Assembly (NCBI GenBank): GCA_000092065.1
Contig: CP000581.1
Direction: 5' to 3' (one strand)
Origin: Ostreococcus lucimarinus
Taxonomy: Eukaryota
Length of the DNA stretch: 64,000 nt
Below the pieces are notes generated by a model that searched no databases, was not told the origin of the DNA, and saw only the letters and a program-made list of their open reading frames with translations. The first letter of the stretch is position 1. Every line of letters starts with the position of its first letter. Of this stretch, positions 6,673-63,169 are shown piece after piece. Position numbers and translations under genes: made by a program.

Positions 6673-8637
6673 CTACCAAGCGTCGACAAAATATCGACCA
6701 GTCGTTTCTAATTTAGTCATGTATCGTGCGCTTGCGTCCTCGTCGAGCAATCCTTGCTCGCGCACGACCTCCTGGATCGCTTTGTGCACGGCCGCGGGCA
6801 TCTTTTCTGCCGATCCAGCTACGAAGACTTTCGCTCCAGCCTCGAGCAAGGACCATATACGTTTCGCTTCATCCTTGACGCAATCTTGCACGTATCGCTT
6901 CTTCGCCTCTGGCACCATGCGAGAAAACGCGACGACAACACCTCCGAGTGAATCGCCGCCAGAACCAATTAAAGAGCCATCTTTTTCAATTTGTTTCCAC
7001 TCTTCCTTATATAAATAATCGTGCCGTGCGTGACGGCATCCAAACACGACCAATGCGCTTGCCGTGGAGGATTGCAGCACGCGTGCTCGAACAAAGGATC
7101 GAAATGGTGCGATACCAGTGCCCGGACCGATGAGAATCAATGGGGTCTCGGGTGGTGGTAAACTGATGCTTCCTTTGGTGATAGAGTATTTCACGCGCGT
7201 GCCAACGTCCAAAGAGTTCAGCCAGGAAGAACATAATCCTTTCCGCGCCCGTTTCATCGGTGTCACCCATTCCGCAGCGGCAACGGTGATGTGCGTCGCC
7301 GCCGTCCGCTCAGTATCCGCTGGAGAAGACGATATGGAATAATATCGCGGATGCAAGTGAGGAGCTACTTGCAAAAGCCACGCCAGTGACGGTTTTAACG
7401 ACGGAAAATCGTCGAATATTTCACACACCGTCCTTCGCTCGCGCTGATTGTACTTGTACAAATCCACAGCGCCCTCTGCCGAGGCAAAGTACTGAAGACG
7501 CTCCTTTTCGTGTTCGCTTTCGGCAAAATGACTCATGACCTCAAAAAAGTAACGTCTTGGGGATGCAGAATCCACATCGATCGCACCTGCGAGTAAGTAC
7601 TTGACCTGAATCAACGGGAACAATGCAGCCTTCGTCTCGGGCGCCGACGAAGGATAAACGCGCACCCAAGCATCCGGAGACATGCCCAGACGCTCAATCA
7701 GAGCCGAGACTTTGGCGTCGGCGGCACGCGTTGCGAAAGGTATCACGCCTAACACATCACCTGCTTCGTAGTGCGCGATCGAGGCGTCTAAGGTTTGAAA
7801 TTCTAGGTGACGAACCTCCTTGACGGCGTCGTCACTCGTCAAACATCTATTCTCACTCACGAATCCATCGTAATACGTTGTGTCGCGCGATTCGCGAGCT
7901 TCGTACTCAGCTTTTGAGAATGAAGTGCTAGCGTCGCTCGCATCAGCCGCCGCGAGCGCGAGTCGCAACGCCGTGTGTGCCTCCATCAGGCGTTCTCCGC
8001 TCGCCTCGACAATGCCCTCTGCGCAGGCAACCTCTTCCACGACGAATCTACAAGCGGGTAACGGCGCACTCGAGAGCTCGGCCTCGGTGAGGTCTTTCAA
8101 GTGCGGTGGCAACGGAAATATCTCGCGCATAGATTTCCACAACTCTCTCAACCACGGATTCAACGCCGCCTCGTACCCAAGTGGGTGCTGGTCATCTCCC
8201 AACCCAAGCGCTTCAATCGCGTTTGCCCCGAGCCCTTGCAGGCGCCGAAAAAGTTTTTTAGCGGTGACGTTATATTTTTGATATCCCGAATCGCCCAACC
8301 CGAACACGGCGTAGGACATGTTCGTCAGAGACGTCGCGGACAAACTCCGCCGCAGCAAAAATCTCCAAAAGCTCTTCATGTTCCTCGGTTCGTCACCCTG
8401 TCCTGTGGTGGACGTGACAAACACCACGCACCGCTCGCGAGGTAACGTTCGCACGTCATATCCCTCCATGGTCATGAGCACGGGGGCGTAATGCTTGAGC
8501 TTGGCCTCTCTCACGACGCGCTCCGCGACGTCTTGCGCGTTCCCAGTCTCCGAACCGTAGAGCACGAGCACGCGACGAGCGGGCGATGCGCCCGACGCGT
8601 CCGATGCGCCCGATGCGCCCGCGCCTGCGCTCACCAT
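6673..8637 (-). CDS. NDOR1: NADPH-dependent diflavin oxidoreductase 1 (NDOR1/Tah18/ATR3-like; flavodoxin + FAD/NADPH domains)
   Basis: VLVLYGSETGNAQDVAERV, VFVTSTTGQGDEPRNMKSFWRFLL, YAVFGLGDSGYQKYN, RYYSISSS, GLCSSWL, GPGTGIAPFRSF; ATG at 8637 verified. Confidence 0.85.
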   Translation of the reverse strand: MVSAGAGASGASDASGASPARRVLVLYGSETGNAQDVAERVVREAKLKHYAPVLMTMEGYDVRTLPRERCVVFVTSTTGQGDEPRNMKSFWRFLLRRSLSATSLTNMSYAVFGLGDSGYQKYNVTAKKLFRRLQGLGANAIEALGLGDDQHPLGYEAALNPWLRELWKSMREIFPLPPHLKDLTEAELSSAPLPACRFVVEEVACAEGIVEASGERLMEAHTALRLALAAADASDASTSFSKAEYEARESRDTTYYDGFVSENRCLTSDDAVKEVRHLEFQTLDASIAHYEAGDVLGVIPFATRAADAKVSALIERLGMSPDAWVRVYPSSAPETKAALFPLIQVKYLLAGAIDVDSASPRRYFFEVMSHFAESEHEKERLQYFASAEGAVDLYKYNQRERRTVCEIFDDFPSLKPSLAWLLQVAPHLHPRYYSISSSPADTERTAATHITVAAAEWVTPMKRARKGLCSSWLNSLDVGTRVKYSITKGSISLPPPETPLILIGPGTGIAPFRSFVRARVLQSSTASALVVFGCRHARHDYLYKEEWKQIEKDGSLIGSGGDSLGGVVVAFSRMVPEAKKRYVQDCVKDEAKRIWSLLEAGAKVFVAGSAEKMPAAVHKAIQEVVREQGLLDEDASARYMTKLETTGRYFVDAW

Positions 8638-8782
8638 CGCGATCGAGTGACGCGCACCGACCTAGTTTGCGCCGCGCGATGGCGACCCAAAATGCGGCTG
8701 CAGGCCGCTGGTGCGGCCGCCCACGAAACGCCAGTGCGCGGCGGTCGTGGGCGCCGGTGCACCGTCGAAGCGCGGTCCAACC

Positions 8783-9256
8783 ATGGCGACCGCTAGAGAC
8801 GATGGTCGTTTCAATCCCAGTCCTGCGCTCGCGCGCGACGTCGAGGCGTCGGGCGCGCGATATCCACCGGTTAAAGTTCGCGCGGCCTCGCTGGGAACCG
8901 TCAAGGCGCGCGCGCTGCATCACCAAGCCACGGAAGAAATGGTGCGAGATTTGTTAAAGTACGACGAAGTGCCGGGAATAACGAACATGTCGCACGTCGC
9001 TTTGCCCCCGGGCACCGTTATCGATCGTCACGTCCATCCGAGCAAGTACGAGGTATTCTTCGTGCAAAGCGGACGAGGTGCGTTCAAGGTGTGGAGACGC
9101 AAAGCGAGCGAAGCGGAAGAGGCGCGAGAAGAAATTGACCTCAGACCTGGTGTGAGCGTATACGTTGGACCGGAAGAACCTCACGAGATTATCCCGCATG
9201 GTGAGGACGAGCCGTTGATGATGTTGTACTTTGGCGTCGTAGCGCCAGAACCTTGA
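8783..9256 (+). CDS. cupin-domain (RmlC-like) small protein
   Basis: HVHPSKYEVFFVQSGRGAF...PGVSVYVGPEEPHEI (cupin_2 motifs); ATG at 8783 in Kozak-like ccATGG context, divergent from NDOR1 start. Confidence 0.6.
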   Translation: MATARDDGRFNPSPALARDVEASGARYPPVKVRAASLGTVKARALHHQATEEMVRDLLKYDEVPGITNMSHVALPPGTVIDRHVHPSKYEVFFVQSGRGAFKVWRRKASEAEEAREEIDLRPGVSVYVGPEEPHEIIPHGEDEPLMMLYFGVVAPEP

Positions 9257-9347
9257 GGTCGCCGGCGTTTCTCTCGCGTCGCGGCGATGCTGTCCGTATT
9301 ATTATTAGTTGTTGTAAACGATGAAGGAAGTAGGAACTCATATTGAG

Positions 9348-11639
9348 CTAGTGAAACGATTTCGACTGTACGGCGAACGTGTGCTGTACTTGCGCGATTG
9401 GTATCGCATCGGATGTTTTATTGTCTCCAAGTGCTGCCTTGAGAGACGACAGTCCCTCAACCACATGTGCTTCAAGTTCTCGCCAAGTTCGTAACACGAG
9501 CTCGTGGACAATCAAATCTTTCATCAAGGTTTTTGCACAAGCTTCGACACTCTTTTCAACGCCCCGAACGTTCGGAATGGCGATCTTATACAGCTTGAGT
9601 AGGTGTGCGCGGCGGTCGCCGGCAGGCTGAAACGTTCCCACACTCGAGCCCGAGCGCAAAGCGTGGATCTCCCCGAAGAGCTTTCCAAAATGCTTTTCGC
9701 AAACCTCCGCGACGTAAGTTGAGCTCGCTAAAGTCATGAATCCGTCCAATTGCGCCGCTAGTCCGGCAGAAACGTCGCCTTCATTCTCACCTCTTTCGAA
9801 ACACCGAGCAAGTGAAAAATAGCCTTGAAGTCTTACTCTGTCATGTCTGAGTGAAGTCGTGAGTTTCGATTCGAGTAAAAGTAGAGATGAGGCATAAAAT
9901 TACCTCTTGGATACCGCACTCGCTGTATGTTCTATGTGCGTGCACGCTACATCACACATCGACAGAAAACAAGCATCAGCTGAGTGTTCACCATTTGCCG
10001 CAAACACGTTTTGAAGCTGCATATGAGCTGAAATAATTTTTCTCAACGGATCGAGCTCTGGCATGCGAAACTCATATTCTCCACCCGAATTGCGCGTCGA
10101 TGATTGCTTCGAGCGAAGCGCACTCAGCTCTCGAGCGAATTCCTGCGCAGCGCTGTTGATGTGCGCTTCTACGACGACCTGTAATTAAATCAAATAAATA
10201 AATCAAATCGAGCGCAGAGAAAACAATGCGATGACGCACCTGAAAGTTATTGACGCTTTCAGTCAACGCATATTGACCTAGAGCGTGCGTCGATGCAGAA
10301 GTATCAATCAAAGCCGCCAGAAACGCCACGCAAAGTGCGCTATTGGTCGCAATCGATTGTTCAATTAAATCGAGCAAACATCCCTCCAATCCTGTAATTA
10401 TTTCCTGATGATAGAATTCGCGATTATTCGACGCGATTCGGAATGTCGTGCCGAGAAACGTTTCCACCGTATTTCCCACAGTCTCCATGGCTGCAATCGC
10501 TGTCCTTAGCGCTTGAAACGCGACCTGCGAATTAATTATTTAATTTCATCCAACATCGTTCATTGAAATCGAGAAGAACTCACGTTTATGGCATCTGCTT
10601 CAGTATCTTGTTTGTCGATCGCGTCCATAATCATCACTATATCGCATCGCATCACTTCAACGCAGCTTTGGCAATATAGACGCGCGAAAGCATCCGCGGT
10701 TGTTGGACTTAATTCGGACAAAGCGTCAAATAATCTCTCGAATTTCTTTAAGTCGCTGCGTTTGTGAGCGATAGATGTGAGATTCGTGACAATATTTATT
10801 TCTGTCATGCACCGTACCTTTGTATTGCTTCCCACGTGTTCGCGTCGCTCATCGCTTTTTTTTGCGTCGACCATCGCACCCATCCCTGCAAGAAATATTA
10901 ATAAATTAATTCCAACGAGCAACACGATACACACCTCTGCGATCGCTCGCAAGCGCTCAAATACACGCTCAAACGCGTGCATGGCTATTACTTCTACTTG
11001 TTCGCGCGCTTCGACGGTGACTCGCATCGTCGCAATCCCTGCTGGTAAACCATCCCTACGTGAGACCGAGTTAGTTTCGGCGTGTAAAGTCGAAACGTCG
11101 CGCACAGCGTACCTCAGCTTTCTTTTGAAGTCCAACAGCCGACGCAGTGCGTCGTAGATGGTCAAAATGCCTCGTTCATCATCGAGTGAATGCTCGCGGA
11201 CTGCACGCTCGACACCAACAGGTAACTCTAACTCCCCAAGCAAGCCCCGCACGGCAGCTGCGAGCGCTCGCTTGTTCTCGTTGGAGACGTCTCGCTTGTC
11301 GTCTCTGCCTTTGATAATCTCGATGTTCCTACGCATATTAACCAGTTTTGTTTCAAACACCGTGGACCACGCGTTCACGTCCTCCATCGAGCGTTCGACT
11401 TCGGATACGTACGCGGACAACGAAGCCATGACGCTTCCCGATGACTCCAACGCGTCAGAGAGAGCGCGGTCGGCGTCTTCAAGCTCGAGCTTTAGGATCC
11501 TATCCAAGCTCGAGATCCCTTCCGTCGTCGCATGACGAGTGCTTTCGAACAGCTCGCCGATCACTCGCTCCTCTTCCTCCTTCAACACGCGCGTGGACGT
11601 GCTCGACACCTCTTCCGTCGTCGTCCCCGCGAGCCGCAT
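9348..11639 (-). CDS. multi-exon gene (>=4-5 short introns) encoding a ~650-aa helical protein, possibly a vesicle-tethering (exocyst/CATCHR-like) subunit; identity uncertain
   Basis: track ORFs 10560..11996, 10072..10488, 9348..9749 on the minus strand are linked by short AT-rich introns with GT..AG ends (e.g. 10525..10583 GTGAGT..CAG; 10179..10239 GTGCGT..CAG); ATG at 11639 (MRLAGTTTEEV). Confidence 0.6.
10179..10239 (-). other. spliceosomal intron (61 nt, GTGCGT...ATTACAG), AT-rich
   Basis: canonical donor/acceptor flanked by coding frames of the same gene. Confidence 0.6.
10525..10583 (-). other. spliceosomal intron (59 nt, GTGAGT...TTCGCAG), AT-rich
   Basis: canonical donor/acceptor; interrupts otherwise continuous coding frames; contains the stop that ends track ORF 10560..11996. 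Confidence 0.6.
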
Positions 11640-11749
11640 CGATGCGACTCGAGGTGGTTGGATTTGTTCGATTCTTTGCACCCGTCCCGACGCGCGAAGA
11701 CGGGTGTCGAGACCGTTTTGGACGTGAATTCTACTTGAGATAAACTTTT

Positions 11750-11925
11750 TCCGCGCGTTCGCGCGCGTTCGCGCGAACCCACGCGCGTTCGCGCGAAAAG
11801 TCGAGTTTTGTGGACGCGAGCGCGCGCGCCTCGAGAGAGTTTTCGAAATTTCGAAACGCGAGCGCGGCGCCACAACTCGGCTCACGCGCGTCACGCGCGC
11901 GTGAAACGCGATGTCGCGCGACGAC
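11750..11925. promoter_or_regulatory. divergent promoter region with a cluster of E2F-like TTTSGCGC / GCGCGAAA motifs (e.g. TTTTTCCGCGCG ~11756, three GTTCGCGCG copies at ~11766/11776/11796, TTCGCGCGAAAAG ~11798, TTTCGAAATTTCGAAACGCG ~11851)
   Basis: motifs read directly from sequence between the minus-strand gene start (11639) and the condensin CAP-H start (12345). Confidence 0.4.
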
Positions 11926-12344
11926 GGAGGCGAGACGTGGACGGAAAACGTCTTTCCGCCCGCCAGTGCGCGCTCCCCCGCCCTGGCGCGCGACACCTCC
12001 GCGTCTCGATCCCGCGCTCGGTTGTCCGCGGAGACCGCGCGCGAGCGTCACGAGCGTCGCGCGCTCGATGCGGTGGATCGAATGGTGGTGAAATCCGCGA
12101 TGGAGGATTTGAGAAAGGTGGCCGATAGTTTAGACGCGGACGCGTGGATGTATCGACCGAAGCGCGAGGCGTGAGGACGGCGCAAAGTTCGAGGCGTCGG
12201 TTCTTCTCGACTTTTAGTCTAGCTCTAGTTTCCATGTATGATTCTTAGTCTGCGGCCATTTTTCATCGAAAAGGGGAACGATTGAGTTCACCGCGAACGG
12301 GCGATTTGCGGCACTCGACGGCGCGTTCGCGGTACGAAGACGCG

Positions 12345-14384
12345 ATGTCCGGCGTGTTGACGCCACACAATCAGAAAATTAAACGCGGTGGGCGGAAGAA
12401 GACCCCGCTGAGCCGATCACCCGCACCATCCGGACTGTTATCCCCGAACGATGATCAGCTGGAACGACAAAAATCGCTCCTGTCCCGCGAAGCGACGGAA
12501 GAGATGCGGCGGGATTTCGCCACCGAGCTCGAAGAAAATGCGGAATCTGCGCCGGTGAAGAAGCCGAGTAAACTCGAAGAACTCACCGGAGCGCCGCAAG
12601 CACCACCAAAACCGGTCAAGAAGCTGTCGGCGGACGCGGTTTTGAACCTCTACACCAACTGCATCAAGCTCGCGTCGGAGAACAAAATCAACGCCAAAAA
12701 CACATGGAGCCTGGCTTTGATCGATCACATCAGCGATATCGTGAAGAATGAAAAAGATGAAGACAATCAAACTAACTTTCAAAAGGCGAGCTGCACATTG
12801 GAAGCTGGTGTGAAGATTTATGCATCGCGCGTAGATTCGTTCCACAGCGAAACTTTCAAGATGCTCGGTGGGATGAACAAAGTCTCGTCCAACGGCGAAG
12901 AAGAAGAAGATGATGGACGACAAGGACTTGGAGACGGTGCGGATGGGAGTCAATTGCCGGAAGACGGCGATGGAGCGAAAACAAAGAAACGACGAGCGAC
13001 CGTAAACACTTTGGAGATGCCGGACGCACACTCGTTGAAGCAGCTCGACGAAACGTTAGTCGTCGATCCTCTTTTCCAAAAGACGAGTGCCATGTTTGAT
13101 GAAGGTGGTGCCTCAGGTCTTCTATTGACAAACTTAGCCGTACACAAAGGGTGCAATATTTGTTTTGACTCAGAAGAGGTGCCAGACTACACGAAGGGCG
13201 AGGACGCGCCGCTCACGGGGACGCTCGATCTCTCGTCGTTGCGTGCTTCAATCGAAGCTGCGACCACGGCCATGGCGTCGGTGTCGCGCATCACACCTTC
13301 TATCGATGAAGTTCAAGCTATGCTCACGGAAGTCACGGGTGTTGCTCCCACCAAGGCAACTGAAGAAAGCGCAGAGGGTGCGGGCTCATTCTTTACGGGT
13401 TCGTCGCTCGAAGGGATAAACTTGGCAGAATACGACGACGAAGATGAAGATATTGCGGAGGAGTCGCCAGAGGACTGGGCTGCCGGTGCTGATGGTTTCG
13501 AAGACGAAAATTGGGCGGAAGATGGCGACCATGGTACATCCATGGATGATGATACCGTTCTACCGACCCAAGAAGGTGGTTTGGAGTGGATCGTTTCATC
13601 TGGCTTAGGTGGCAAGATGGGCTGGGCTGGCCCGACACACTGGCAATTCAGAGCTCCACCTCGCGCCAAATCGAGTGCTAACGGCGAAGACGACGGTGAA
13701 AACAAAAACCAAAAGAAGAGAGGGAAGGGTGAGCTCACTTATGACTTTGAAAATCCGAGCGAGCTTGATGAACGAAGATTTGAACTCGCCGTCGACGAGG
13801 ACGACCTGTTGTTGGCCACAGCACCGAGTGCGTCCGACACTCTCCTTCCACCAGATCTCGGTTATGAACCATCCAATCTGATAAAACTTTTCTTGAAGTC
13901 TCAAAACGTGGCGAGCTTGGTAAATAGTGAATCCATGACGAATCAAGACGAGGAAGGGTTCACCTTTGGCGCAGATGAAGCTGGAGGCGAATTCGATGAT
14001 GGTGAGGAGCTGGTCGGTGAAGCGGGCGGGTGGTATGACGCCAATGAGTTAGGAGACGATGACGATTTTGTGGATGCCCCGCGACGTGTGGAAAAGATTG
14101 AGGTCAATTACGCTAGGACCACGAAGCAAGTGAACGTCCGCGCTCTCAAGCAAACGCTCTGGGCCAACCTCGAAGAATCAACGTCAGAGGAAGACGTGCA
14201 TTCTTTCAATGAGATGCTCCGGGAATTCCCCGTGAATAACCCAGCTGGACATGTTGAAGATATCAGCGTTCATATGGCGTTCATTTGCGCCCTTCACCTT
14301 GCTAATGAGCACGGTCTGGTCATCAAGAGCGTCCCTGCCATGGACGATTTATGCATCTCAAATGTTCCATGTTCAGTGAATTAG
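12345..14384 (+). CDS. CAP-H: condensin complex subunit 2 (kleisin CAP-H / Barren / Brn1)
   Basis: NCIKLASENKINAKNTWSLALIDHISDIVK...NFQKASCTLEAGVKIYASRVDSFHSETFKMLGG (conserved kleisin N-domain) and C-terminal VNVRALKQTLWANLEE...FICALHLANEHGLVIK; track ORF starts at TTG 12282; first ATG 12345. Confidence 0.85.
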   Translation: MSGVLTPHNQKIKRGGRKKTPLSRSPAPSGLLSPNDDQLERQKSLLSREATEEMRRDFATELEENAESAPVKKPSKLEELTGAPQAPPKPVKKLSADAVLNLYTNCIKLASENKINAKNTWSLALIDHISDIVKNEKDEDNQTNFQKASCTLEAGVKIYASRVDSFHSETFKMLGGMNKVSSNGEEEEDDGRQGLGDGADGSQLPEDGDGAKTKKRRATVNTLEMPDAHSLKQLDETLVVDPLFQKTSAMFDEGGASGLLLTNLAVHKGCNICFDSEEVPDYTKGEDAPLTGTLDLSSLRASIEAATTAMASVSRITPSIDEVQAMLTEVTGVAPTKATEESAEGAGSFFTGSSLEGINLAEYDDEDEDIAEESPEDWAAGADGFEDENWAEDGDHGTSMDDDTVLPTQEGGLEWIVSSGLGGKMGWAGPTHWQFRAPPRAKSSANGEDDGENKNQKKRGKGELTYDFENPSELDERRFELAVDEDDLLLATAPSASDTLLPPDLGYEPSNLIKLFLKSQNVASLVNSESMTNQDEEGFTFGADEAGGEFDDGEELVGEAGGWYDANELGDDDDFVDAPRRVEKIEVNYARTTKQVNVRALKQTLWANLEESTSEEDVHSFNEMLREFPVNNPAGHVEDISVHMAFICALHLANEHGLVIKSVPAMDDLCISNVPCSVN

Positions 14385-17026: not shown

Positions 17027-18721
17027 CTAATCCCTCGAGCACGCCTCGTTCCAACGATGAACGATGCCGGGGACGTGTGCGGCGCCGAGGACGAAGACTA
17101 CGGTGATTGAGACGCCGTCGGCGGGGAGGTCGAGTGCCGGGACGCGACGCGCGTATTCAAACGTCGAGGAGGCGCTGTGGTAAAAGCCAGGACGGTCCGT
17201 CGGTTTACCCTCGATCACGGACCATAAACAATCAAACAAGACGCTGTCTCGTTCATCTATGAATACTTCGCGCATGTGAGGCGGCATGCTGACCTCACCC
17301 GAACGCATCAGCGTCAAACGCTCGGTTTCGATAGCCGTGGTTAACTGTTTACGTGTCTTGAAGGCGGATGTAATCAACGATCGTATGGATCCGAGGATAT
17401 AGCGCGCGAGCGAACGCTTCATTCCTGGAACGTGTTCATGAAGCTTTTCTTCGAGCGATCGCATCGTCTTGGATACTTCTGAATCAGCCAAGTAGACACG
17501 TGAAGTGCGCGACTCGAACGCTGCTGATAAACCAGCAATGATTTCCCCACCGTCTTGAGCGTCGAGTTTGTTCGAAATAATAGACTCAGCAAGCGTCATC
17601 ATCCCGTTCATAATTTTTACAGTCAATGGAGACGACTTATTCGCTCCCGCCCCCGCTCTCGCCGCCTCGCCGATGAATGAAATGGACAACACGTCCTGAA
17701 GACTGACGTCAATGCGCTCAAACCACCTATCCGTCGATAAAGCCACATCTGGAACCACGTCGAGCGTTATACATTCCCCATCGCTCACATCCAGCGCTAC
17801 GGTGTAGCCACTTTGTAGCCTCTCTTGGACCGCAATAACCAAAGATGCGCACAAAGCTGCAGTCTGCCACGCGCTCATCTTGCCTTGACCGCTCGCACAA
17901 TCGCTCACTTTCACAAGCTCGCCCGCTCGTCGCATCACTTCAACCTCTGCAGCGGCATCCGAAGTAGCGGAGACGAAATTTTCATAAACGTTCCACTTGA
18001 ATCGGATGTCTGAAGTCAACTCTGCGCCCATCGGATGAACGGTGAAGACAATTTCGGCAACCGATACCACCAAAGTCACCTTCCCTTCCTTCCAAACGAC
18101 GGTGCGCGCACCGTGTTCGTCTTCAGCACGTCCGCGTACAATGACCGATTCGAATAAACCAGTGCGCAACAATAACTCAGCATCACTTTTGAGATCTTCC
18201 AACGACACTCCCTTCCCAACTTTTGTGCGTAAACGCGACAGTAGAACAACCTCATCCACTCCGCCAGGAAGAACACCCGCCGGCATACCAACAATATGCA
18301 CCGCACCGGGTACTACTACGTCGTCGTTCTCGACGCCTTTCATTCGGTCAATGATGCCATCAACGCGCTCATCGCACACTTCTAGTAGCACTGCGTCGGG
18401 TTTATTCGTTCGTATTACCTCGTCGGCGTCCAAGGCGGAGCGCTCGCTCACATGCGCCGTCGGTAACAGAATTACTTTCACTCCCGCCGTATGACTCGTC
18501 TTCGGGCGCTCTAGGACGACCGTGGGTATCGCATCCGGCTCGCGACTAACCTTGACATGGCTCGCGTCACCATGCTGTGCGTGTGCGCACCTCGAAACGC
18601 GTGCGAGGCGACGTTCAACGCGACGCCGCCCTTTTCGCGCTTTCGACAGTCCCAAACACTTTCGCTCGGGCGACGCGCTCAGCGCAGATGCGCCGAGGCA
18701 CGTGCGATGAACAGTGTTCAT
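17027..18721 (-). CDS. TraB-family (TraB/PrgY/GumN) domain protein with long internal insertion and N-terminal presequence
   Basis: GVKVILLPTAHVSERSALDADEVIRTNKPDAVLLEVC and C-terminal VVFVLGAAHVPGIVHRW match the TraB family pattern; ATG 18721 verified. Confidence 0.6.
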   Translation of the reverse strand: MNTVHRTCLGASALSASPERKCLGLSKARKGRRRVERRLARVSRCAHAQHGDASHVKVSREPDAIPTVVLERPKTSHTAGVKVILLPTAHVSERSALDADEVIRTNKPDAVLLEVCDERVDGIIDRMKGVENDDVVVPGAVHIVGMPAGVLPGGVDEVVLLSRLRTKVGKGVSLEDLKSDAELLLRTGLFESVIVRGRAEDEHGARTVVWKEGKVTLVVSVAEIVFTVHPMGAELTSDIRFKWNVYENFVSATSDAAAEVEVMRRAGELVKVSDCASGQGKMSAWQTAALCASLVIAVQERLQSGYTVALDVSDGECITLDVVPDVALSTDRWFERIDVSLQDVLSISFIGEAARAGAGANKSSPLTVKIMNGMMTLAESIISNKLDAQDGGEIIAGLSAAFESRTSRVYLADSEVSKTMRSLEEKLHEHVPGMKRSLARYILGSIRSLITSAFKTRKQLTTAIETERLTLMRSGEVSMPPHMREVFIDERDSVLFDCLWSVIEGKPTDRPGFYHSASSTFEYARRVPALDLPADGVSITVVFVLGAAHVPGIVHRWNEACSRD

Positions 18722-20603: not shown

Positions 20604-22892
20604 ATGGCGCGCGCGGTTGGTGACGACGATGATCATCCTTCGACGTCTTCCACGGACGACTTACCGGTCTCGCGTTACGGTGCGTCGAGCGTTACGGAGA
20701 GCGCCGACTGGACCCCCGACCGCGAACGAGAGGAGCATCTTTTTCTTAGAGCGACGACGACGGTGACTGACGAGCGCGGTGATCGACGAACAGCGAACGA
20801 TATTGCGAGTGCGGTAAAGACGAATGCGGTGACGGTTGTGATTGGGGAGACGGGGAGCGGGAAGACGACACAGATTGCGCAGATTCTCCTGCGCTCAGGC
20901 GTCGTCGCCGACGGCTCGGCGGTGGCGGTGACGCAGCCGAGACGTGTGGCAGCTGTTTCCGTGGCAAAACGCGTCGCAGAAGAAATGGGGGTAGAGATTG
21001 GGAAAGAAGTTGGGTATTCGGTGCGCTTTGAGGACAGAACGTGCCGCCTGACGAGGATAAAATATTTAACTGACGGCACGTTACTGCGAGAGCTTCTCGA
21101 AGACCCGACTCTGTCGCGTTACAGTGTCGTCGTCTTGGATGAGGCTCATGAGCGGTCGTTGCACACAGATATATTATTCGGATTATTGAAGAAGCTCGTG
21201 TCCGCGCGTGAACTGAAGCTGGTGATTACTTCGGCCACGCTCGACAGCGAAAAATTCTCGACGTATTTCGACGACGCACCGGTGTTCACCGTGCCTGGAC
21301 GCACGTTTCCGGTTCAAATCGCGCACGCCACCGAGGCTCCAAAGTCGTACTTTCAAAGTGCGATTGAAACGGTGGTGGATGTACATGTGAATACCGGCCC
21401 TGGGGATATGTTGGTGTTCCTAACAGGTCAAGAAGAGATTGAAAAAGCGTGTCGGGCTGTGGAGGCTCACGTGCGATCGATGCCCGAGGGAGAGTGTCCA
21501 GATGTGCAAGTCTTGCCACTCTATGCATCACTCCCACCGGATATGCAGTCGAGGGTGTTTCACCCACATGATCCGAACGTGCGACGAATAATCTTTGCGA
21601 CAAATATTGCTGAGACGTCGCTGACGGTCCCAGGAATCGTTTTTGTGATTGATCCAGGCGTGGTGAAGCAGGTTGAGTACGATGCGATGACGGGAATGAA
21701 TGCATTAAAAGTAGTGCCTATCAGTAGCGTGCAGGCGAAGCAGCGTGCAGGACGTGCAGGAAGAACGCAAGCTGGGCGATGCTACCGACTGTACACAAAG
21801 GACGCGCTCGAACTCGACATGCCAGCGATCACTCGGCCAGAGATCCAACGGACATGTCTAGTCGGTACGATTCTGTATCTGAAGACACTGAATCTAAAAG
21901 GACTAGATGTGATGACTTTCGATTTCTTGGATCCTCCAGACACTGCACTCATCGCAGATGCTTTGCGCCAACTTTATTTCGTTGGTGCAATCGATCCCGA
22001 TGGGAAGGCAACTTCTATTGGACGAGAGATGAGTTCGCTTCCACTTGAGCCATGCTTATCGCGTGCGATGGTCGAAGCGAAACGCCTTGATTGTGTTGCA
22101 GATACTGCAACAGTTGCCGCGATGTTGAGCGTCGAAAGAGTGTTTTTAGGTCAGCACCGAGATGCAACTGAGAGTCTTCACGAGCTTGCGACTCACGAAG
22201 ATTTTCTTCTTGGCGATCACGCGGTGTTACTTCGAATCTATCAAGCCTGGGAGAGCAGTGGATATCAAAGAAAATTTCACCAGCGGTATTCGTTGTCGGA
22301 TCGAGGAATGGAGTTCGCGCGAGAGATACGAAAACAATTACTTGGAGTGTTCAAGGACAAGCGTAAAAGCGATAGGAACGACTTTGATTGTTTCTCACGA
22401 ACAGATGAAGGTCTGAACCGATTGCGCCAATCGCTGTGCGCAGGCTTCGTGACAAAGATTGCGCATCGACTACCGAATCATAATGGCTACAGAACATTGG
22501 GAGAAAATTCCACGCTGTGCCAGGTCCACCCTTCTATGGCTCGCCAACTCGCCGACAAAGACGGTTTGCTTCCAGAGTGGATCGTTTACCATGAGTTGAT
22601 CACGACTTCTCGACCCTTTCTCCGCCACGTGTGCAAAATTGAGCCAGAATGGATTTCAAAGCAAAGAGAGCTGCTCTCGAAGAAGGTGAACATTCATCGT
22701 CTCTCTGGCGGCGTGTTGAGCCCCGGGGATGCTGAAAGCACGGACGCAGCGAGTGGGCACGAAGCCGACACGGTGGACGCGAATAAAGCGCCAGTCGAAG
22801 GACGTAGAATCACCGACGAGCAAGTTTCTGCCGCGCGAGAGCGCTTCCTGGCGCGTAAGAAACAGAAATTAGCGAAATTAGCGGGAAAATAG
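20604..22892 (+). CDS. DEAH-box ATP-dependent RNA helicase (Prp2/Prp16/Prp22/Prp43 - DHX family)
   Basis: VVIGETGSGKTTQ (motif I), VVLDEAHERS (DEAH), ITSATLD, FLTGQEEIE, QRAGRAGRTQAGRCYRLYT, HA2/OB C-terminal region; track ORF starts at 20397 but would overlap the CDK start; ATG 20604 chosen. Confidence 0.8.
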   Translation: MARAVGDDDDHPSTSSTDDLPVSRYGASSVTESADWTPDREREEHLFLRATTTVTDERGDRRTANDIASAVKTNAVTVVIGETGSGKTTQIAQILLRSGVVADGSAVAVTQPRRVAAVSVAKRVAEEMGVEIGKEVGYSVRFEDRTCRLTRIKYLTDGTLLRELLEDPTLSRYSVVVLDEAHERSLHTDILFGLLKKLVSARELKLVITSATLDSEKFSTYFDDAPVFTVPGRTFPVQIAHATEAPKSYFQSAIETVVDVHVNTGPGDMLVFLTGQEEIEKACRAVEAHVRSMPEGECPDVQVLPLYASLPPDMQSRVFHPHDPNVRRIIFATNIAETSLTVPGIVFVIDPGVVKQVEYDAMTGMNALKVVPISSVQAKQRAGRAGRTQAGRCYRLYTKDALELDMPAITRPEIQRTCLVGTILYLKTLNLKGLDVMTFDFLDPPDTALIADALRQLYFVGAIDPDGKATSIGREMSSLPLEPCLSRAMVEAKRLDCVADTATVAAMLSVERVFLGQHRDATESLHELATHEDFLLGDHAVLLRIYQAWESSGYQRKFHQRYSLSDRGMEFAREIRKQLLGVFKDKRKSDRNDFDCFSRTDEGLNRLRQSLCAGFVTKIAHRLPNHNGYRTLGENSTLCQVHPSMARQLADKDGLLPEWIVYHELITTSRPFLRHVCKIEPEWISKQRELLSKKVNIHRLSGGVLSPGDAESTDAASGHEADTVDANKAPVEGRRITDEQVSAARERFLARKKQKLAKLAGK

Positions 22893-31831: not shown

Positions 31832-32410
31832 TCACGCCGTCTTCGCCGCCGCGCGCTTCGCCTTGATGTCAGCCACCGCGGATCGAATCGCATCCTCGGC
31901 GAGCATCGAACAGTGCAACTTCACCGGCGGCAAGTTCAAATGTTTCGCTATGTCCTGATTCTTGATCGTCACCGCCTCATCTACGTGCGTGCCTTTGATC
32001 CATTCCGTCGCCACCGAGCTCGACGCGATCGCACTTCCGCATCCGAACGTCTTGAAGCACGAGTCCACGATGTTGCCCTCGTCGTCCACCTTAATCTGCA
32101 GCTTCATCACGTCCCCGCACGCGGGAGCCCCGACGACGCCCGTGCCGACGTTCAGATCGCTCTTATCGAACGAACCAACATTTCTTGGGTTTTCGTAATG
32201 ATCCACCACCTGCGATGCGCGCGTCGCACGCCTCGGTTAGTCTCATTCTTGGCTTTCTCTTCGAGTCGCGTCGACGACGACGATTCCACCGCGCGCTTCC
32301 GTCGCGCGCACCTTTTTGTCGTAGGCGCGTTCGAAAACTCGAGAGCACGCGACGGATTTCGCGCTCGTCGTCCCTCGGCGCGCCGTTCGTTCGATCGCAC
32401 GTCGTAACAT
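31832..32410 (-). CDS. ISCU: iron-sulfur cluster assembly scaffold IscU/ISU1 (mitochondrial); two exons: exon1 ~32312..32410 (MLRRAIERTARRGTTSAKSVACSRVFERAYDKK), intron ~32210..32311, exon2 31832..32209 (VDHYENPRNVG...)
   Basis: exon2 has LNVGTGVVGAPACGDVMKLQIKVDDEGNIVDSCFKTFGCGSAIASSS...LPPVKLHCSMLAEDAI (three Cys ligands, LPPVK); junction reconstitutes the conserved ...YDKKVVDHYENPRNVG; donor GTGCGC..., acceptor ...TCGCAG; exon1 is 99 nt (phase 0). Confidence 0.8.
32210..32311 (-). other. GC-rich spliceosomal intron (~102 nt) of the IscU gene
   Basis: GTGCGCGCGACGG...CGCATCGCAG between presequence exon and core exon. Confidence 0.6.
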
Positions 32411-34670: not shown

Positions 34671-35488
34671 ACCGCGCGCGCGCGATCTTCCCGCGTCGCT
34701 CCCGCGCAGGCGTCTCTCGGACCGTGTGATTCGCGCGTCGCTCGCGCCTCTCGCCTCTCGCCTCGCGCGCGCGTCTCGGCGCCTCGCGCGGCGCGACGAA
34801 CGCCCGCGCCTTCGTTCGCGCGCCGCGCTCGATCGCCGCGCTCGATCGCCGCGTTCGATCGACGACGCGCGCGTCGATTTGCCGCGCAACACCATTGTTG
34901 GTCCAGAGCAAAAAGAGCGAAATTCGACCGACCGGCGTGTCGGGAAAGACGACGGCGCGCGGCAGAAGACGCCGCCACCATGGTCGCGCGCGGTGCGACG
35001 GTGTGCGTGGGAGCGCGGTGTGGACACGCCTCTTGGCGTGCGCGCGAGAGACGAACGACGAGGTGCGCGCGACTACGACACGAAACGACGAGACGACGAC
35101 GCGCGTGCTGAATTTGAAATTTCAATCGGCGCGCGAGGCTGCGCGACGATGACGCGTTCGGGTTCGCGATCGAGCGGTCGTGGGACGAGACAGGGCGCGA
35201 AAGACTGACGCAGATGCGGTGCCGTGCGGTGATGCCGACCTTAGGCGTGTCGATCGTGGTGGGTGGCTCGACGGCGACGCGAGACTATCGACGCGAGGCG
35301 GACGCGTCGACGCTTCGGTGGCGGAGGGCGAGACGACGTGGCGAGGGGATTCGGGAAGTGATGCGGACGATGGAACGAGCGTGCAGGATGGTAGGGAATG
35401 GTACACGTTTAAGCACGGAGAGAACGTGCGGTGGTTGGTGGAACAGAGTGGGTTAGACTGGGCCACTCTGGAGCAACTGAATCCAGAC

Positions 35489-40152: not shown

Positions 40153-41322
40153 ATGATCGACGCCGCGGTGGGTGTTGGCGGCAACGTTGTCGAGTCCGAG
40201 GCTCTGTTGGAGCCTGCGAGTGGGTCGGGACGCGATCGTCGTCTCGCACGCAAAGCATTACAATGGTCCGGCGCGATGCTGACGTTTGCGTCGTTCATCG
40301 CGCTCGGCGTCGTTGCAAAGCGGCGCTGGGTTGGCGTTGAGCGCGCGAGCGCGGCGGCGTTGGGAGACACGCCTGGAACAGTGCGCGTGGAATCGTTCGA
40401 CACCGCGGCTTGTCAGTGGCGTCTTGATCGTGCGCTTGACGAGAATATTCGGTGTAATCCGGCTGGCACAGACGTCGTGGTAGTGCCCAAACTCAAAGCG
40501 GTGTACGTGGATGTGACGAAGGCGGCGAGTGAAAGTATACGAAGTCGTCTATTAGATGTCTACAACTCAAGCTGGACAAATGAAGAATACGCCATGGACG
40601 AAGGGAACAACATCGTTCGTTCGACTACTTCTTCGTTGTCGGATGAATTGTTGGATTCATACAAATTCTTCACGTTTGTACGAAATCCAAGTGAGCGTTT
40701 CGTCTCTGGCTATCAGCAGGCTTTCTGTCGCTCTTTGTGTCAGGGATGCATGCATGGAAAGACACCCACCCGGCCTCCGACGATTGAGCAGACGATCGAT
40801 TTGATAGAAATCATGCGCGGTAGGGCGAAGCATGACGACAGCTTTTGCTCGAATCGTCTGGGGGCGCCGCAAGACCAGAGCTTTTTGAACAATCCTTGGT
40901 TGGATGAGCACTTACAATCAACCGTATCGAGGCTCAGTGGTGTAACTCGACGTGGCTCGCGCGTACCAATGCACTTTATAGGTCGAACTGAGTCGTTGGA
41001 CGAAGATTGGAACCGTCTTATGGATGAGCTCGGCGTCGAACCAAGTCACCCTGTTCGTGCTCCGCTCAAGCACGTCGAGCACGAGTGCGCGATCTCCGAG
41101 CGCGAAAGACATTTGAAAGCCCAACGTGACGTATTCTTCTCTCACATAGTCCGTGGTGAACGAGCTCCAGAATCAGGCGAGCTTTATGAACCAGTGGAAG
41201 TCATTTACTCACGCGACAGAGCCGAGGTACACATCCCGAAGCCGAGTACCGCAAACGGTGGTGCGTACTTTGATAGATTCAAAACGCTCTACGAGGACGA
41301 TTACCGATGCCTCGATTATTAG
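40153..41322 (+). CDS. carbohydrate sulfotransferase-like type-II membrane protein (Sulfotransfer_2 family)
   Basis: N-terminal signal-anchor (MLTFASFIALGVVA), FTFVRNPSERFVSGY (3'-PAPS-binding motif of CHST family), downstream HFIGRTESLDEDW; ATG 40153. Confidence 0.6.
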   Translation: MIDAAVGVGGNVVESEALLEPASGSGRDRRLARKALQWSGAMLTFASFIALGVVAKRRWVGVERASAAALGDTPGTVRVESFDTAACQWRLDRALDENIRCNPAGTDVVVVPKLKAVYVDVTKAASESIRSRLLDVYNSSWTNEEYAMDEGNNIVRSTTSSLSDELLDSYKFFTFVRNPSERFVSGYQQAFCRSLCQGCMHGKTPTRPPTIEQTIDLIEIMRGRAKHDDSFCSNRLGAPQDQSFLNNPWLDEHLQSTVSRLSGVTRRGSRVPMHFIGRTESLDEDWNRLMDELGVEPSHPVRAPLKHVEHECAISERERHLKAQRDVFFSHIVRGERAPESGELYEPVEVIYSRDRAEVHIPKPSTANGGAYFDRFKTLYEDDYRCLDY

Positions 41323-41469
41323 CCATTTAGCCAACACTTACCATTAGCGTTCATCATTAGCTAGCTCGATGAATTAGACTCCTTCAACTTTCAACTTTCA
41401 ACCACGCCCGATGTCCCCCACAACGCTTCAGACGCCGCCGCGTAGTTCGGCCGATCCCACCGCGGCGTC

Positions 41470-43215
41470 ATGGAGCTTGCATCGCGCGACACCGCGCGAT
41501 CGACACTGACGCGCGCGTTACCATTCGACGTATTCGACGCCGACACCGACGCACCGTCGTGCAGCGACACCGACGCCACGAACGGCTTGGCTGCGACGAA
41601 CAAACCGTTGAATCGCAGCGACGAAGACGCCGTCGTTGAGCTTCGGGCGATCGATGCAGCGCTCCGTGCGGCGCTGCACCGCGCACCACGAACGATGAAT
41701 GAAGTTGTGACGAAAGGGGCGACGCTGGATCTGTGTGCGGACCTCATAGAGCGCGAGGATGAGGCGATGCGCGCGGCGGGAGCAGGACGTCGTCGAGCGA
41801 CAAGCTCGAGCGAAACCGAACGCGAGGAAGACGTGCCATGGGGCACACCGACGAAGGCGGCGGTGGAACGATTTGCAGAAGAGCTGGAGGTGGTTCTCAA
41901 AGAGAAGGAGAACGCGGTGATTGGACTTGAGAAGACTTTGGCATCGAAGCGCGAAGCGACGCTTGCATTTGAGCAGCAAAGAGCGCGGGCAGCGCAGAGC
42001 GAAAAAGCGCTGCACTTCGCCGAAGGCGAGATTGTGAGACTATCGAAGAAGGTGAATGAGCTCTCCAAAGTTTTGGAAGGCTCGAGGGCAGAGTCCGCCC
42101 AACGTTGGGAAAAATTAAAGAAGGTAGAGAAGCGACTTGCGGAGGCGCAAGCCAAGGACGAGGAAAATCTGCGTGCGCTTGCGATGCTTCGAAAAGATTT
42201 GCAAACTGAGCGTCAAATGAACAAGTCAAAAGAAGCCGAGATATCTCGACTGCGCGATGCGTTCCGAGATGTCAGCAACGGTAAAAAGATTGAAAACGTG
42301 GGTGATGAGCAGAATTTGAAGCGAATTCAAGACCTGGAAGAAAAGATTGTTCAGTTGGCTGTTTCCGTATCAAAGCAGTCTTCTGCATCTTCAGTACCAC
42401 GACGTTCGAACGAGCGCGAGTTGAATTTGTTAGTCCACGAGCTCGCTAAAGAAGAGTTGAAATCCAGAGCTCGAGCGGACGCCGCTGAGCAACTCGTTAC
42501 TACGATGCGAGCAGAGTTAGATTCAAAGACGGTCGAAGTTATCACGCTGCGTCAGCACATCAATACTCTTGATCAAAAACATCCCGTTAGAACCATCTCA
42601 CGCGGGTCCTTAGACTCACCGCGATCGGTGTCAGTTTCTCTAGAAGAGATTGATCAGAACCTTCAACGAAGTTGCGATCGCGCCGAACAGCTTTGCCAAC
42701 GTCTTTCAACGGTGATGTCTTCTGGTGGAGCATCAACGGGTGGATATTCTCAGAGAATGATGGAAACCCCTCTTAGTGTGTCGAGCGATCGTTCAGAGGA
42801 CAAGATTCGCGAGCTTCAAGAAGCGCTTGATGATCAATCTCAGCGTCGAGACGAGGCTGAGAAACTGGCAGCCAAGGCGGCGAGTGATGCATCAGCCTTG
42901 CGAGATTTGATCACCGCAGAACGCATAGCATCTGCTGCTGCAATGATGGCTGAGTCGAGGGGCTTGACAGGAGCGTATGTCGCGCGAGGAAATACGCACA
43001 ATATGTCTCCATCAACTTCTGATGTCACATCGACACCGAGCCGTAGTCCTCGACCGTTTCAACACACACCACGAACGACGTCGTCGATCTTCGGAGGTGC
43101 TCCCGTAGGCCTTTCAAAAGAGTTGGAAGAAGCGCGGCGCACCGCTAATAAAGAGCGTAAGCGCGCGGAAGTGGCCGAGGAGACAATATCTCGATGGAGC
43201 CGTCTCGCAGATTAG
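41470..43215 (+). CDS. hypothetical coiled-coil protein (581 aa)
   Basis: long heptad-rich ORF, ATG 41470, GC3-rich; no specific family recognised. Confidence 0.5.
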   Translation: MELASRDTARSTLTRALPFDVFDADTDAPSCSDTDATNGLAATNKPLNRSDEDAVVELRAIDAALRAALHRAPRTMNEVVTKGATLDLCADLIEREDEAMRAAGAGRRRATSSSETEREEDVPWGTPTKAAVERFAEELEVVLKEKENAVIGLEKTLASKREATLAFEQQRARAAQSEKALHFAEGEIVRLSKKVNELSKVLEGSRAESAQRWEKLKKVEKRLAEAQAKDEENLRALAMLRKDLQTERQMNKSKEAEISRLRDAFRDVSNGKKIENVGDEQNLKRIQDLEEKIVQLAVSVSKQSSASSVPRRSNERELNLLVHELAKEELKSRARADAAEQLVTTMRAELDSKTVEVITLRQHINTLDQKHPVRTISRGSLDSPRSVSVSLEEIDQNLQRSCDRAEQLCQRLSTVMSSGGASTGGYSQRMMETPLSVSSDRSEDKIRELQEALDDQSQRRDEAEKLAAKAASDASALRDLITAERIASAAAMMAESRGLTGAYVARGNTHNMSPSTSDVTSTPSRSPRPFQHTPRTTSSIFGGAPVGLSKELEEARRTANKERKRAEVAEETISRWSRLAD

Positions 43216-44417: not shown

Positions 44418-45405
44418 CTAGTTCGAGGGAACGGCTTCGGGTTCGACGGTGGGCGCGGAAGCGTCTTGGACTTGCGTAAGATCGACATTGACTTCAGGTT
44501 CGCCCACCTTGGCCGTCGCCTTTGCCTCCGCCGTGACCGCCTTCACCTTGTTCGTCGCCTGACTCAAGCCTTCGCCGATGGTCGTCGTGGCGCTACTTAT
44601 CACCTTGCTCTCCATCGCCTTGTTCATCGCCATGCCAGCAGCGTCTCGTCCGATCCCCACCACAGCGTTCGTCGTCGCAGTTATCTTCAGCGACTTGTCA
44701 ATCTCTGCGACCTGCGCCGACGCGGTGGTTGACAGTTTCTTGACGCCCGTCGACAAACCAGCCTTTTCATCAAATTTCTTCATGCTGGACGATATTTGTA
44801 ATTTCTCATCCATAGCCTTGATATTTTCTTTCGTCTTAGCCGTGATTTGATTTCTCTCGTCGAAATCCTTCACCGCCGCCATGGCTTGCTTGCCAGCGAG
44901 AAGCGTCTTGCCTAAAAATCCAGCGAACTTGGATTCAAAGCTGTTCAGCGTCGTGCCCTCGTTCGCGACGTCGTCCGAAACCGGGTACGCGCACTCCGCG
45001 ATGTTCAACGGATGATTGAGTAACAAACATCCGTTTAATAGCACCGCCGCGCTCACCGCCTCCTTGTGCGTGAACTCGATCACGGCTTTGCGTCCGCTCT
45101 TCGTGGCGACGTTGAAGATGCGCACGCGCTCAATCTCCCCTGCCGTGCTGAAGAATTCCCTCAAATTAGACTCTTCCGCGCTTGGAGCGACGTTTGTGAC
45201 CTGTGTGATGCACGATCGAGCGTGTGCGCGTCAGTAATCACGCGCGAGGCGAGAGATCTCGAACGAAATCTTATTTCAACGTGCCCAGTCGGAGAGGCGA
45301 GAATCGTGCCGTTGGGAGCGAAACTGCGCGTACGGCGCGTGACGATCGCGAGCAAAGACGCCGCGCATCGCGTTTCGTCCGCTGACGCACCGTAATGGCT
45401 GACAT
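44418..45405 (-). CDS. BPA1-like (binding partner of ACD11) RRM protein; two exons: 15-nt exon1 45391..45405 (MSAIT), intron 45201..45390, exon2 44418..45200
   Basis: spliced N-terminus MSAIT|VTNVAPSAEESNLREFFSTAGEIERVRIF... reconstitutes an RRM RNP2 region; C-terminal repeated K.FDE(R/K)xQ(I/L)S helical motifs typical of BPA1/BPL proteins; donor GTGCGT, acceptor CACACAG; total CDS 798 nt in frame. Confidence 0.7.
45201..45390 (-). other. GC-rich spliceosomal intron (190 nt) after a 5-codon first exon
   Basis: ATGTCAGCCATTACG|GTGCGTCAG....CATCACACAG|GTCACAAACGTC. Confidence 0.6.
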
Positions 45406-59683: not shown

Positions 59684-60163
59684 ATGGAGTGCCACCGCGC
59701 GAGCGCGTTGAAGGCGAAACGAGAGCTCGACATGGTGAAAAGGTTGAGAGACGCGGAGCGGGACGAGTTGCGCGCGACGCGCGCGGCGTTGATGGAGATG
59801 AATCGAGACGCGAAGGGAGATGAAGTGAATCGAGTGAAAGAGATGACAGGATTTGAAAATACGATTCGCCATGAGCGCGCGCGGCGAGAGGCGGCAGAAT
59901 CGGAGAGGGATGAGTTGATGGATTTGCTGCATATGGCGCACGCAAAATTGGAGCACGCCGACGCAAAGATTCGCAGTGTCGATCGCATGATTGCGAACGA
60001 CGTGCGGCGAGTATGCGACGCGATCAATGACGAACGCATGCGTTCTATTGACTGCACTGTTTCCAACGTTGGCACGACGCAAACATTACTCGATCGTTTG
60101 TCAGAGTTGTATGAGTCTCGGTTTGCGAAGTCTCGCGAGGCGTTGCGAGAAATTTCAAGCTGA
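59684..60163 (+). CDS. small hypothetical coiled-coil protein; upstream in-frame extension to 59492 has no ATG
   Basis: track ORF 59492..60163 (GTG start); first ATG 59684; heptad-rich. Confidence 0.3.
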   Translation: MECHRASALKAKRELDMVKRLRDAERDELRATRAALMEMNRDAKGDEVNRVKEMTGFENTIRHERARREAAESERDELMDLLHMAHAKLEHADAKIRSVDRMIANDVRRVCDAINDERMRSIDCTVSNVGTTQTLLDRLSELYESRFAKSREALREISS

Positions 60164-62670: not shown

Positions 62671-63169
62671 TGCGTTCGCGACGGGGCGATAGAGTCGGAC
62701 GCGATGGACGCGACGTGCGCGCCGCCGCCGGCGAGACCGAATTGCGATTGCGGTGCGCGCGACGCGACGCTGCGCGACGCGACGGGACGCGGGACGACGC
62801 GACGACGACGCGCGGGCGATCGAGGGTCGAGGGCGCGCGGTCGAGGGCGGGATCTCGACGGCGCGCGAGCGACGGCGCGCGGGACGCGCGCGGGACGCGG
62901 GCGACGGCGACCGCGCGATCGGGGAGTGGGGAGACTGACGGATGCGGTGATCGCGCGCGAGAACAGCGGTGTGCGTGCCGAAGGCGCTGAAAGATGGGGA
63001 TTACGACGCCTCGCTCAAGGGGCCGACGAGCCCGTTTCAGCCGTACAAGCTGGTGAAGGTGGAGTTGGACGGCACGCGAAGACCGCTGACGGCGCAGGAG
63101 CTGAACGCGCTCGAAAAGTCGAATCCGACGGTTTGTGAGTGGCAAACGCCGCTCAGTCAGGCGAAGCGG

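Follow-up and report, generated by a model that had tools for sequence, protein, structure and literature searches.

Reviews describe small AT-rich introns and genes with several exons as confined to the low-GC region (BOC1) of the big outlier chromosome of the Mamiellophyceae. The locus considered here raises the question of whether a gene of this kind can also reside on a standard chromosome and, if so, whether its character belongs to the gene or to the chromosomal domain around it. It is found in a 64,000-nt stretch of Ostreococcus lucimarinus DNA (contig CP000581.1), referred to throughout as the window, in which the minus strand of positions 9348–11639 carries a SEC3/EXOC1-like gene (hereafter SEC3) with six short introns. 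We consider it probable (roughly 0.8) that SEC3 lies on a standard chromosome, that it contains six minimal spliceosomal introns, and that its low G+C content (GC) and weak-signal introns are a long-standing property of the gene.

Gene structure and splicing

The coding span of SEC3 occupies exactly 9348–11639 on the minus strand, with the ATG at 11639 and the stop codon, TAG, at 9350–9348. It consists of seven exons separated by six GT–AG introns (57, 49, 62, 59, 61 and 57 nt), and removal of the introns leaves a stop-free open reading frame (ORF) of 1947 nt, or 648 codons. The same six introns are found by our own protein-to-genome spliced aligner, which places them at residues 175, 216, 238, 296, 391 and 482 in phases 2, 0, 2, 0, 0 and 2, respectively. 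The parts of the gene are as follows.

9348..11639, minus: SEC3 coding span; seven exons, 648 amino acids (aa); from the spliced ORF and the Pfam domain Sec3_CC
11640..11816, minus: 5' untranslated region (UTR), at least 177 nt, covered by the transcript contig L001
11113..11639, minus: exon 1, 527 nt, GC 0.565; residues 1–175 and two bases of codon 176
11056..11112, minus: intron 1, 57 nt, phase 2, GC 0.54, GTACGC...ACTAAC...GTAG; a multiple of 3 and stop-free
10935..11055, minus: exon 2, 121 nt
10886..10934, minus: intron 2, 49 nt, phase 0, GC 0.33, GTGTGT...T-rich...TGCAG
10818..10885, minus: exon 3, 68 nt; run of eight A (A8) at 10856–10863
10756..10817, minus: intron 3, 62 nt, phase 2, GC 0.42, GTACGG...CGCAG
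10584..10755, minus: exon 4, 172 nt, GC 0.436
10525..10583, minus: intron 4, 59 nt, phase 0, GC 0.32, GTGAGT...TCGCAG; contains a stop codon at 10562–10560
10240..10524, minus: exon 5, 285 nt, GC 0.47
10179..10239, minus: intron 5, 61 nt, phase 0, GC 0.34, GTGCGT...T-rich...TTACAG
9904..10178, minus: exon 6, 275 nt
9847..9903, minus: intron 6, 57 nt, phase 2, GC 0.39, GTAATT...ACTCAC...CTCAG; contains an immediate in-frame TAA
9348..9846, minus: exon 7, 499 nt, stop codon included

Evidence for splicing comes from three independent transcript-derived sequences, all of which are without all six segments. In a homology search a 375-aa product was 100% identical over the junctions of introns 4–6; it is encoded on the Logan contig SRR17229684_47366 (L001), of 2731 nt, which is collinear with, and 100% identical to, window positions 11816–8742, with the six introns precisely gone. 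The second sequence is UniProt A0A7R9SZJ7 (578 aa, from Ostreococcus sp. 'lucimarinus'), which we attribute to a transcriptome assembly, and the third is the JGI/IMG product P0081 (638 aa); both are 100% identical to the spliced SEC3 model, exon 3 included. The sole difference between L001 and the genome is a run of nine A (L001 ~848–856) where the genome has A8 (10863–10856), which shifts the frame of the contig ORF. Since A0A7R9SZJ7 and P0081 both agree with A8, the ninth A is treated as an error of the contig, probably one of homopolymer assembly, with transcriptional slippage or polymorphism as alternatives.

The six segments are spliceosomal GT–AG introns, removed from the mRNA at the junctions listed. 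The original prediction of a multi-intron gene at 9348–11639, made from the sequence and naming RNA evidence at the junctions as its check, is thus borne out, its limits matching the coding span exactly. Interruption by short introns was correctly foreseen, although there are six interruptions rather than the four or five, at least, that had been counted. It had also been claimed that several of the introns are stop-free and have a length divisible by 3; such a length is found in introns 1 and 6, and intron 1 alone is stop-free in frame.

Beyond the SEC3 stop codon, contig L001 (1627–2731; window 8742–9347) continues over the whole of the convergent cupin gene (8711–9256, plus strand). The stop codons of the two genes are 91 nt apart, and the contig could reflect either overlapping 3' UTRs or two convergent transcripts merged by the assembler.

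Read-through and the public annotation

The spliced structure is at odds with the public annotation of O. lucimarinus SEC3, which misses all six introns. In a six-frame ORF listing the gene is split into pieces, one of which, the ORF at 10560–11996, starts before the ATG and runs to 10560. Introns 2 and 3 are jointly frame-restoring (49 + 62 = 111 nt) and intron 1 is in-frame and stop-free, so this ORF reads across introns 1–3. The GenBank model (ABO94132.1/XP_001415840.1/A4RR57, 359 aa) is this read-through: it keeps introns 1–3, translates exon 3 in the wrong frame, stops in intron 4 and misses the C-terminal 352 residues (297–648). The reference annotation is for these reasons wrong, a read-through artefact. 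Prokaryote-style gene callers repeatedly yield the same 359-aa product, and in many metagenome assemblies they cut SEC3 into exon-sized pieces. The orthologue in Micromonas pusilla is annotated as two genes, MICPUCDRAFT_52706 (367 aa, Sec3_CC) and an adjoining 356-aa Sec3_C-term model.

The single-exon ABO94132.1 implies that the AT-rich segments stay in the message as coding sequence, and the stop-free passage of the ORF at 10560–11996 across introns 1–3, like the recurrent 359-aa product, is what such a gene would give. This is already refuted by the three transcript-derived sequences, and its probability is close to nil. Read-through would in addition lose the C-terminal 352 residues, and the stops in introns 4 and 6 do not fit a coding role; nor does a 5-nt deletion in intron 6 of a 95.7%-identical strain (L002), which would shift the frame if the segment were coding. 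All six introns are kept in that strain, at the same residues and in the same phases and with GT–AG boundaries.

The gene product

In Pfam searches the 648-aa protein matches Sec3_CC (PF09763) with E = 8.7e-11 and 42.2 bits (cut-off 27.1). An exhaustive HMMER search returned remote full-length matches of 693–1098 aa, including one plant-like protein of 887 aa which we take to be a SEC3. The protein thus resembles SEC3/EXOC1, a subunit of the exocyst and so part of the secretion machinery, in its Sec3 coiled-coil domain and in its remote plant-like matches, but it is short, strongly divergent and begins directly at the coiled coil. Neither the Sec3-PIP2_bind (PH) domain nor the Sec3_C-term domain was detected in it (Pfam, E < 1), whereas Micromonas-type relatives possess both, the PH domain being seen in P0126. 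A sequence search of the PDB with the protein gave no meaningful match. The UniProt copy A0A7R9SZJ7 bears the name 'Sec10', to which the Pfam domain evidence gives no support. A search of 8000–13000 against Rfam (E ≤ 0.1) found no structured RNA.

Intron class

The small AT-rich introns of the BOC1 region have been described as 40–65 bp long (Moreau 2012, PMC3491373) and, with a GC threshold that was set for Micromonas, as shorter than 75 nt, below 43% GC and without a branch motif (Verhelst 2013, PMC3879977). In Ostreococcus the outlier region is on chromosome 2 (PMC2483917), whose introns have weak signals with a preference for GTRNGT at the 5' site (Irimia & Roy 2008, PMC2483917). Outside chromosome 2, by contrast, 87% of the O. 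lucimarinus introns confirmed by expressed sequence tags (ESTs) have ACTGAC and a GTGCGTG 5' site (PMC2483917).

All six SEC3 introns are shorter than 75 nt, and five of the six fall below 43% GC (0.32–0.42); intron 1 stands at 0.54 and the pooled GC is 0.391. The 5' sites of introns 1–6 are GTACGC, GTGTGT, GTACGG, GTGAGT, GTGCGT and GTAATT, so that a GTGCGT start is found once (intron 5), and ACTGAC occurs in none of the introns. The original description of them as very short and AT-rich accordingly holds for length in all six and for composition in five, intron 1 being the exception. When each intron was searched against the 64-kb window by blastn-short, only self-matches were returned, with no mutual similarity, and on these matches an introner or repeat origin within the window was ruled out.

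Two other introns in the window, known from their sequence features, serve as comparators:

32210..32311, minus: IscU intron, 102 nt, GC 0.65, GTGCGCG...ACTAAC...CGCAG
45201..45390, minus: RRM (BPA1-like) intron, 190 nt, GC 0.61, GTGCGTC...TTACTGACGC...ACAG

Both had been singled out earlier as longer and GC-rich, and both are present as described. The proposal that the two kinds of intron resemble the canonical and the small AT-rich introns of the Mamiellophyceae is upheld, in that length, GC and splice signals match the published descriptions.

Further candidate canonical introns can be recognised at 20680–20793, 35063–35213, 41261–41564 and 62753–62966 on the plus strand and at 59941–59618 and 16836–16459 on the minus strand. 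These are defined only by a pattern that combines a 5' site of the GTGCG type with ACTGAC and a terminal YAG, and the majority are situated close to the 5' end of a long ORF.

Chromosomal location and base composition

Exact protein look-up places the SEC3 neighbours ABO94130, ABO94133, ABO93809 and ABO93813 on the 1,152,508-bp record of O. lucimarinus CCE9901, which we infer to be chromosome 1. This is the largest O. lucimarinus chromosome.

The GC of the window is 0.557. A sliding window of GC, another of the checks that had been proposed, places the SEC3 span, at 0.496, in the bottom 2% of windows of 2.3 kb. The SEC3 coding sequence itself has a GC of 0.515 and a GC at third codon positions (GC3) of 0.552. 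Most genes here had been put at about 65% GC, which proves too high: the 33 other ORFs of the window have a GC of 0.559 ± 0.033 (range 0.50–0.65) and a GC3 of 0.630 ± 0.059. The SEC3 exons are indeed lower in GC, as had been noticed, but the effect is modest (0.515 vs 0.559), amounting to about 1.3 standard deviations (SD), and several neighbours are equally low. Because the coding GC is only that far below the neighbours, the trough arises from the introns together with mildly low-GC exons.

These values invite the explanation that the window is itself a low-GC, outlier-like domain in which small AT-rich introns are to be expected. The window GC of 0.557 compares with a mean of 60% published for the genome and with 53% for the small outlier chromosome (PMC3491373). 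The window, however, belongs to the 1,152,508-bp record, whereas it is chromosome 2 that carries the outlier region (PMC2483917). The window also holds canonical GC-rich introns, and its long-range collinearity with relatives is the opposite of the published behaviour of BOC1. Furthermore, only one of about 40 window genes is visibly broken by short introns; no further gene of this kind was seen in the window, although in-frame, stop-free introns inside long ORFs would escape notice. Adjacent same-strand ORF pairs, which might have been split genes, were shown by Pfam to be separate genes (CS, RRM, lipocalin, a CHIP-like U-box/TPR and V-ATPase c). A scan for GT...AG segments with a low-GC contrast was insensitive, recovering two of the six known introns and otherwise matching mostly intergenic spacers. 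That the window forms an outlier domain is therefore unlikely, and as an account of the SEC3 introns it has very little to commend it. Of the original suggestion that a small-intron gene sits in a normal-GC context outside the outlier region, the location stands and the normal or high GC of the context does not.

Conservation in Ostreococcus lineages

More distant SEC3 loci (L003 and L006–L012) were recovered by profile searches. In L003 and L006–L009 the gene order is that of the window, namely Pkinase, TraB-like, PB1/TPR, Cnd2, a small ORF, SEC3 and cupin, followed in L006–L009 by a diflavin reductase where the contig reaches it. SEC3 itself has diverged considerably, with 48% identity to the window protein in L003 and 31% in L006 and L009, whereas the neighbouring proteins of these relatives are 62–83% identical to those of the window, the TraB-like protein (38–49%) excepted.

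In L003 the six introns are at the same residues and in the same phases as in the window. L006 agrees in all but its second intron, aligned to residue 219 with phase 1, and in L009 three of the six are placed 2–4 residues off in an alignment of 31% identity. Intron 1 keeps its position and phase in L002, L003, L006 and L009. The introns of L003, L006 and L009 are 48–75 nt long, mostly with a GC of 0.25–0.46, and keep their GT–AG boundaries. On these alignments, intron positions, phases, a narrow length class and gene order are conserved across Ostreococcus lineages. No O. tauri SEC3 orthologue was recovered in the homology and profile searches.

The TraB/PrgY-like ORF of 564 aa (17027–18721, minus strand) is a second fast-evolving neighbour, with 49% identity in L003 and 38% in L006. 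It is without introns.

Micromonas and the AT-rich trough

The loci L010–L012 have the gene order of M. pusilla CCMP1545 (Nucleotid_trans, SEC3, SelR, Ras and PDS5), unlike that of Ostreococcus. The M. pusilla SEC3 locus (L014; GG663747.1:514378-531481) is on a scaffold of 892,804 bp. The BOC1 region of M. pusilla CCMP1545 spans approximately 438,300–2,118,000 (PMC3879977); as the SEC3 scaffold falls far short of its end, it is not the outlier one.

In every relative examined SEC3 is AT-richer than its flanks, modestly in Ostreococcus and strongly in Micromonas:

L003: GC of SEC3 span 0.505, rest of locus 0.544
L006: GC of SEC3 span 0.461, rest of locus 0.519
L009: GC of SEC3 span 0.453, rest of locus 0.512
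L010: GC of SEC3 span 0.542, rest of locus 0.624
L011: GC of SEC3 span 0.535, rest of locus 0.598
L014 (M. pusilla): GC of SEC3 span 0.492, rest of locus 0.635

In M. pusilla the gene (L014 8001–10538) forms a sharp AT-rich island, with an exon GC3 of 0.56–0.62 against 0.77–0.89 in its neighbours. The persistence of the trough across differing neighbourhoods points to a cause at the level of the gene and not of the domain.

These data also bear on the possibility that SEC3 once resided in BOC1, where it took on its low GC and its small introns, and was later relocated to a standard chromosome. Such a history would account for introns that agree with all BOC1 sequence criteria except location (PMC3879977, PMC3491373) and for a span within the lowest-GC 2% of the window's 2.3-kb windows. 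Against it, PB1/TPR, Cnd2, cupin and diflavin reductase flank SEC3 in Ostreococcus-like relatives down to 31% identity, and the M. pusilla orthologue, on its 892,804-bp scaffold outside BOC1, is still AT-rich. Relocation would hence have to be very old and its signature unexpectedly persistent, which makes it an improbable source of the present state.

Origin of the low-GC, small-intron state

On the reading preferred here, that of a long-standing property of a gene on a standard chromosome, it is the ordinary U2-type spliceosome that would splice the SEC3 introns, by way of intron definition. They would be recognised by their short length, their drop in GC and their T-rich 3' tracts, unlike introns with the canonical GTGCGTG, ACTGAC and CGCAG signals. 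They would in this respect work like the small AT-rich introns of BOC1, and the low-GC, small-intron state would be due neither to residence in an outlier domain nor to a recent move out of one.

Several observations weigh against this reading. The assignment of the 1,152,508-bp record to chromosome 1 rests on the size of the record and on accession order. At 55.7%, the GC of the window is about 4 points under the genome mean of 60% (PMC3491373), so that this is no textbook high-GC region, and in composition the SEC3 exons of O. lucimarinus do not stand out from the genes around them. The six introns are not uniform: intron 1 is not AT-rich and has a branch-like motif, ACTAAC. In L010 and L014 the introns at 175, 216 and 238 are absent and there is one near residue 259 instead; at about 25% identity the spliced aligner is unreliable, and only these features of the Micromonas-type genes are used. 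As intron positions are not common to the Micromonas orthologues, the intron architecture may be only as old as the Ostreococcus lineage. Finally, SEC3 may not be unique among non-outlier genes, since ~13% of the EST-confirmed introns outside chromosome 2 are without ACTGAC (PMC2483917).

The preferred reading may be refined, rather than replaced, by supposing that a GC-enriching force, either GC-biased gene conversion or codon-usage selection, is lacking at the scale of the gene and that this causes both features. In a weakly expressed, fast-evolving gene the lack of such a force would lower GC and block the kind of intron loss that depends on recombination. Few genes of the neighbourhood evolve as fast as SEC3 (48% and 31% identity, compared to 62–83% for most neighbours), GC3 is depressed in all lineages and most in Micromonas, and low GC coincides with retained small introns here, outside BOC1, as it does inside BOC1. 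Evolutionary rate and GC are only loosely linked, however, as the well-conserved Cnd2 also has a low GC3 (0.56), and published BOC1 genes are low in GC yet highly expressed (PMC3491373). We regard the refinement as a possible explanation, but a doubtful one. Equally tentative is the wider proposition that low GC and many minimal weak-signal introns form a gene-autonomous state, with SEC3 a conserved 'outlier gene' on the standard chromosomes of Ostreococcus and Micromonas.

Significance

Both the intron class and the spliced SEC3 protein, the latter in UniProt from transcriptome data, were already known. What is new is that a BOC1-like gene with six introns is present on a standard chromosome and conserved across Ostreococcus lineages, together with the conserved AT-rich trough of SEC3 across the Mamiellales and the errors of annotation. 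SEC3 is a transcript-verified counter-example, conserved across species, to the reviews that confine small AT-rich introns to BOC1. It bears on whether BOC1 introns are caused by the chromosomal domain or by the gene itself, and on whether introns with weak signals can be spliced in any part of the nucleus, though one gene cannot settle either matter.

If a gene-autonomous state were established, SEC3 would be a natural control with which domain effects (chromatin compartment, suppressed recombination and spliceosome recruitment) could be separated from gene-level causes. It has been suggested that weak-signal introns depend on a concentration of spliceosomes around the intron-rich region (Irimia & Roy 2008, PMC2483917); six such introns correctly spliced on a standard chromosome would argue against this dependence. 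The main value of the case is that it draws attention to the intron classes found outside BOC1 in the genome as a whole.

Upstream of SEC3, the intergenic segment 11640–11910 separates the gene from a divergently oriented 87-aa ORF (11911–12174) and the condensin gene Cnd2. It contains about four GCGCGTTCGCGCG-like motifs, including GCGCGAAAA, which resemble sites of the E2F type (TTTCGCGC), and may serve as a common promoter tied to the cell cycle.

Comparison with known intron systems

Canonical Ostreococcus introns, found outside chromosome 2, are approximately 100–200 nt long, GC-rich and usually one per gene, with GTGCGTG, (G)ACTGAC(G) and CGCAG signals. The SEC3 introns share with them GT–AG boundaries, a type of chromosome and, presumably, the spliceosome; intron 5 begins with GTGCGT, and introns 3 and 4 end in CGCAG. 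They differ in the branch point, which in canonical introns sits 20–35 nt upstream of the AG as (G)ACTGAC(G), a motif whose ACTGAC core is found in none of the six. It is the IscU and RRM introns of the window that fit the canonical type, with lengths of 102 and 190 nt, a GC of 0.61–0.65, a GTGCG 5' site and ACT(G/A)AC.

The introner elements of Micromonas (IE-A to IE-D) are likewise short spliceosomal introns, and they are abundant outside the outlier region of a related genus. They are, however, repeat families that favour high-GC regions, whereas the SEC3 introns are similar to nothing else in the window.

The likeness to BOC1 introns extends to length (49–62 nt), GC (five of six below 43%), GT–AG boundaries, weak and variable 5' sites (three of the six fit GTRNGT) and the lack of an ACTGAC branch motif. 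As in BOC1, there are many introns in the gene, they are mutually dissimilar, and their positions are kept between related species. The differences are that SEC3 lies outside BOC1, in a collinear and otherwise intron-poor neighbourhood, that intron 1 has a GC of 54%, and that the AT excess of the host exons over their neighbours is mild. The SEC3 introns are therefore of the BOC1 class in form but lack the location that defines it, and by the published definition they are not BOC1 introns.

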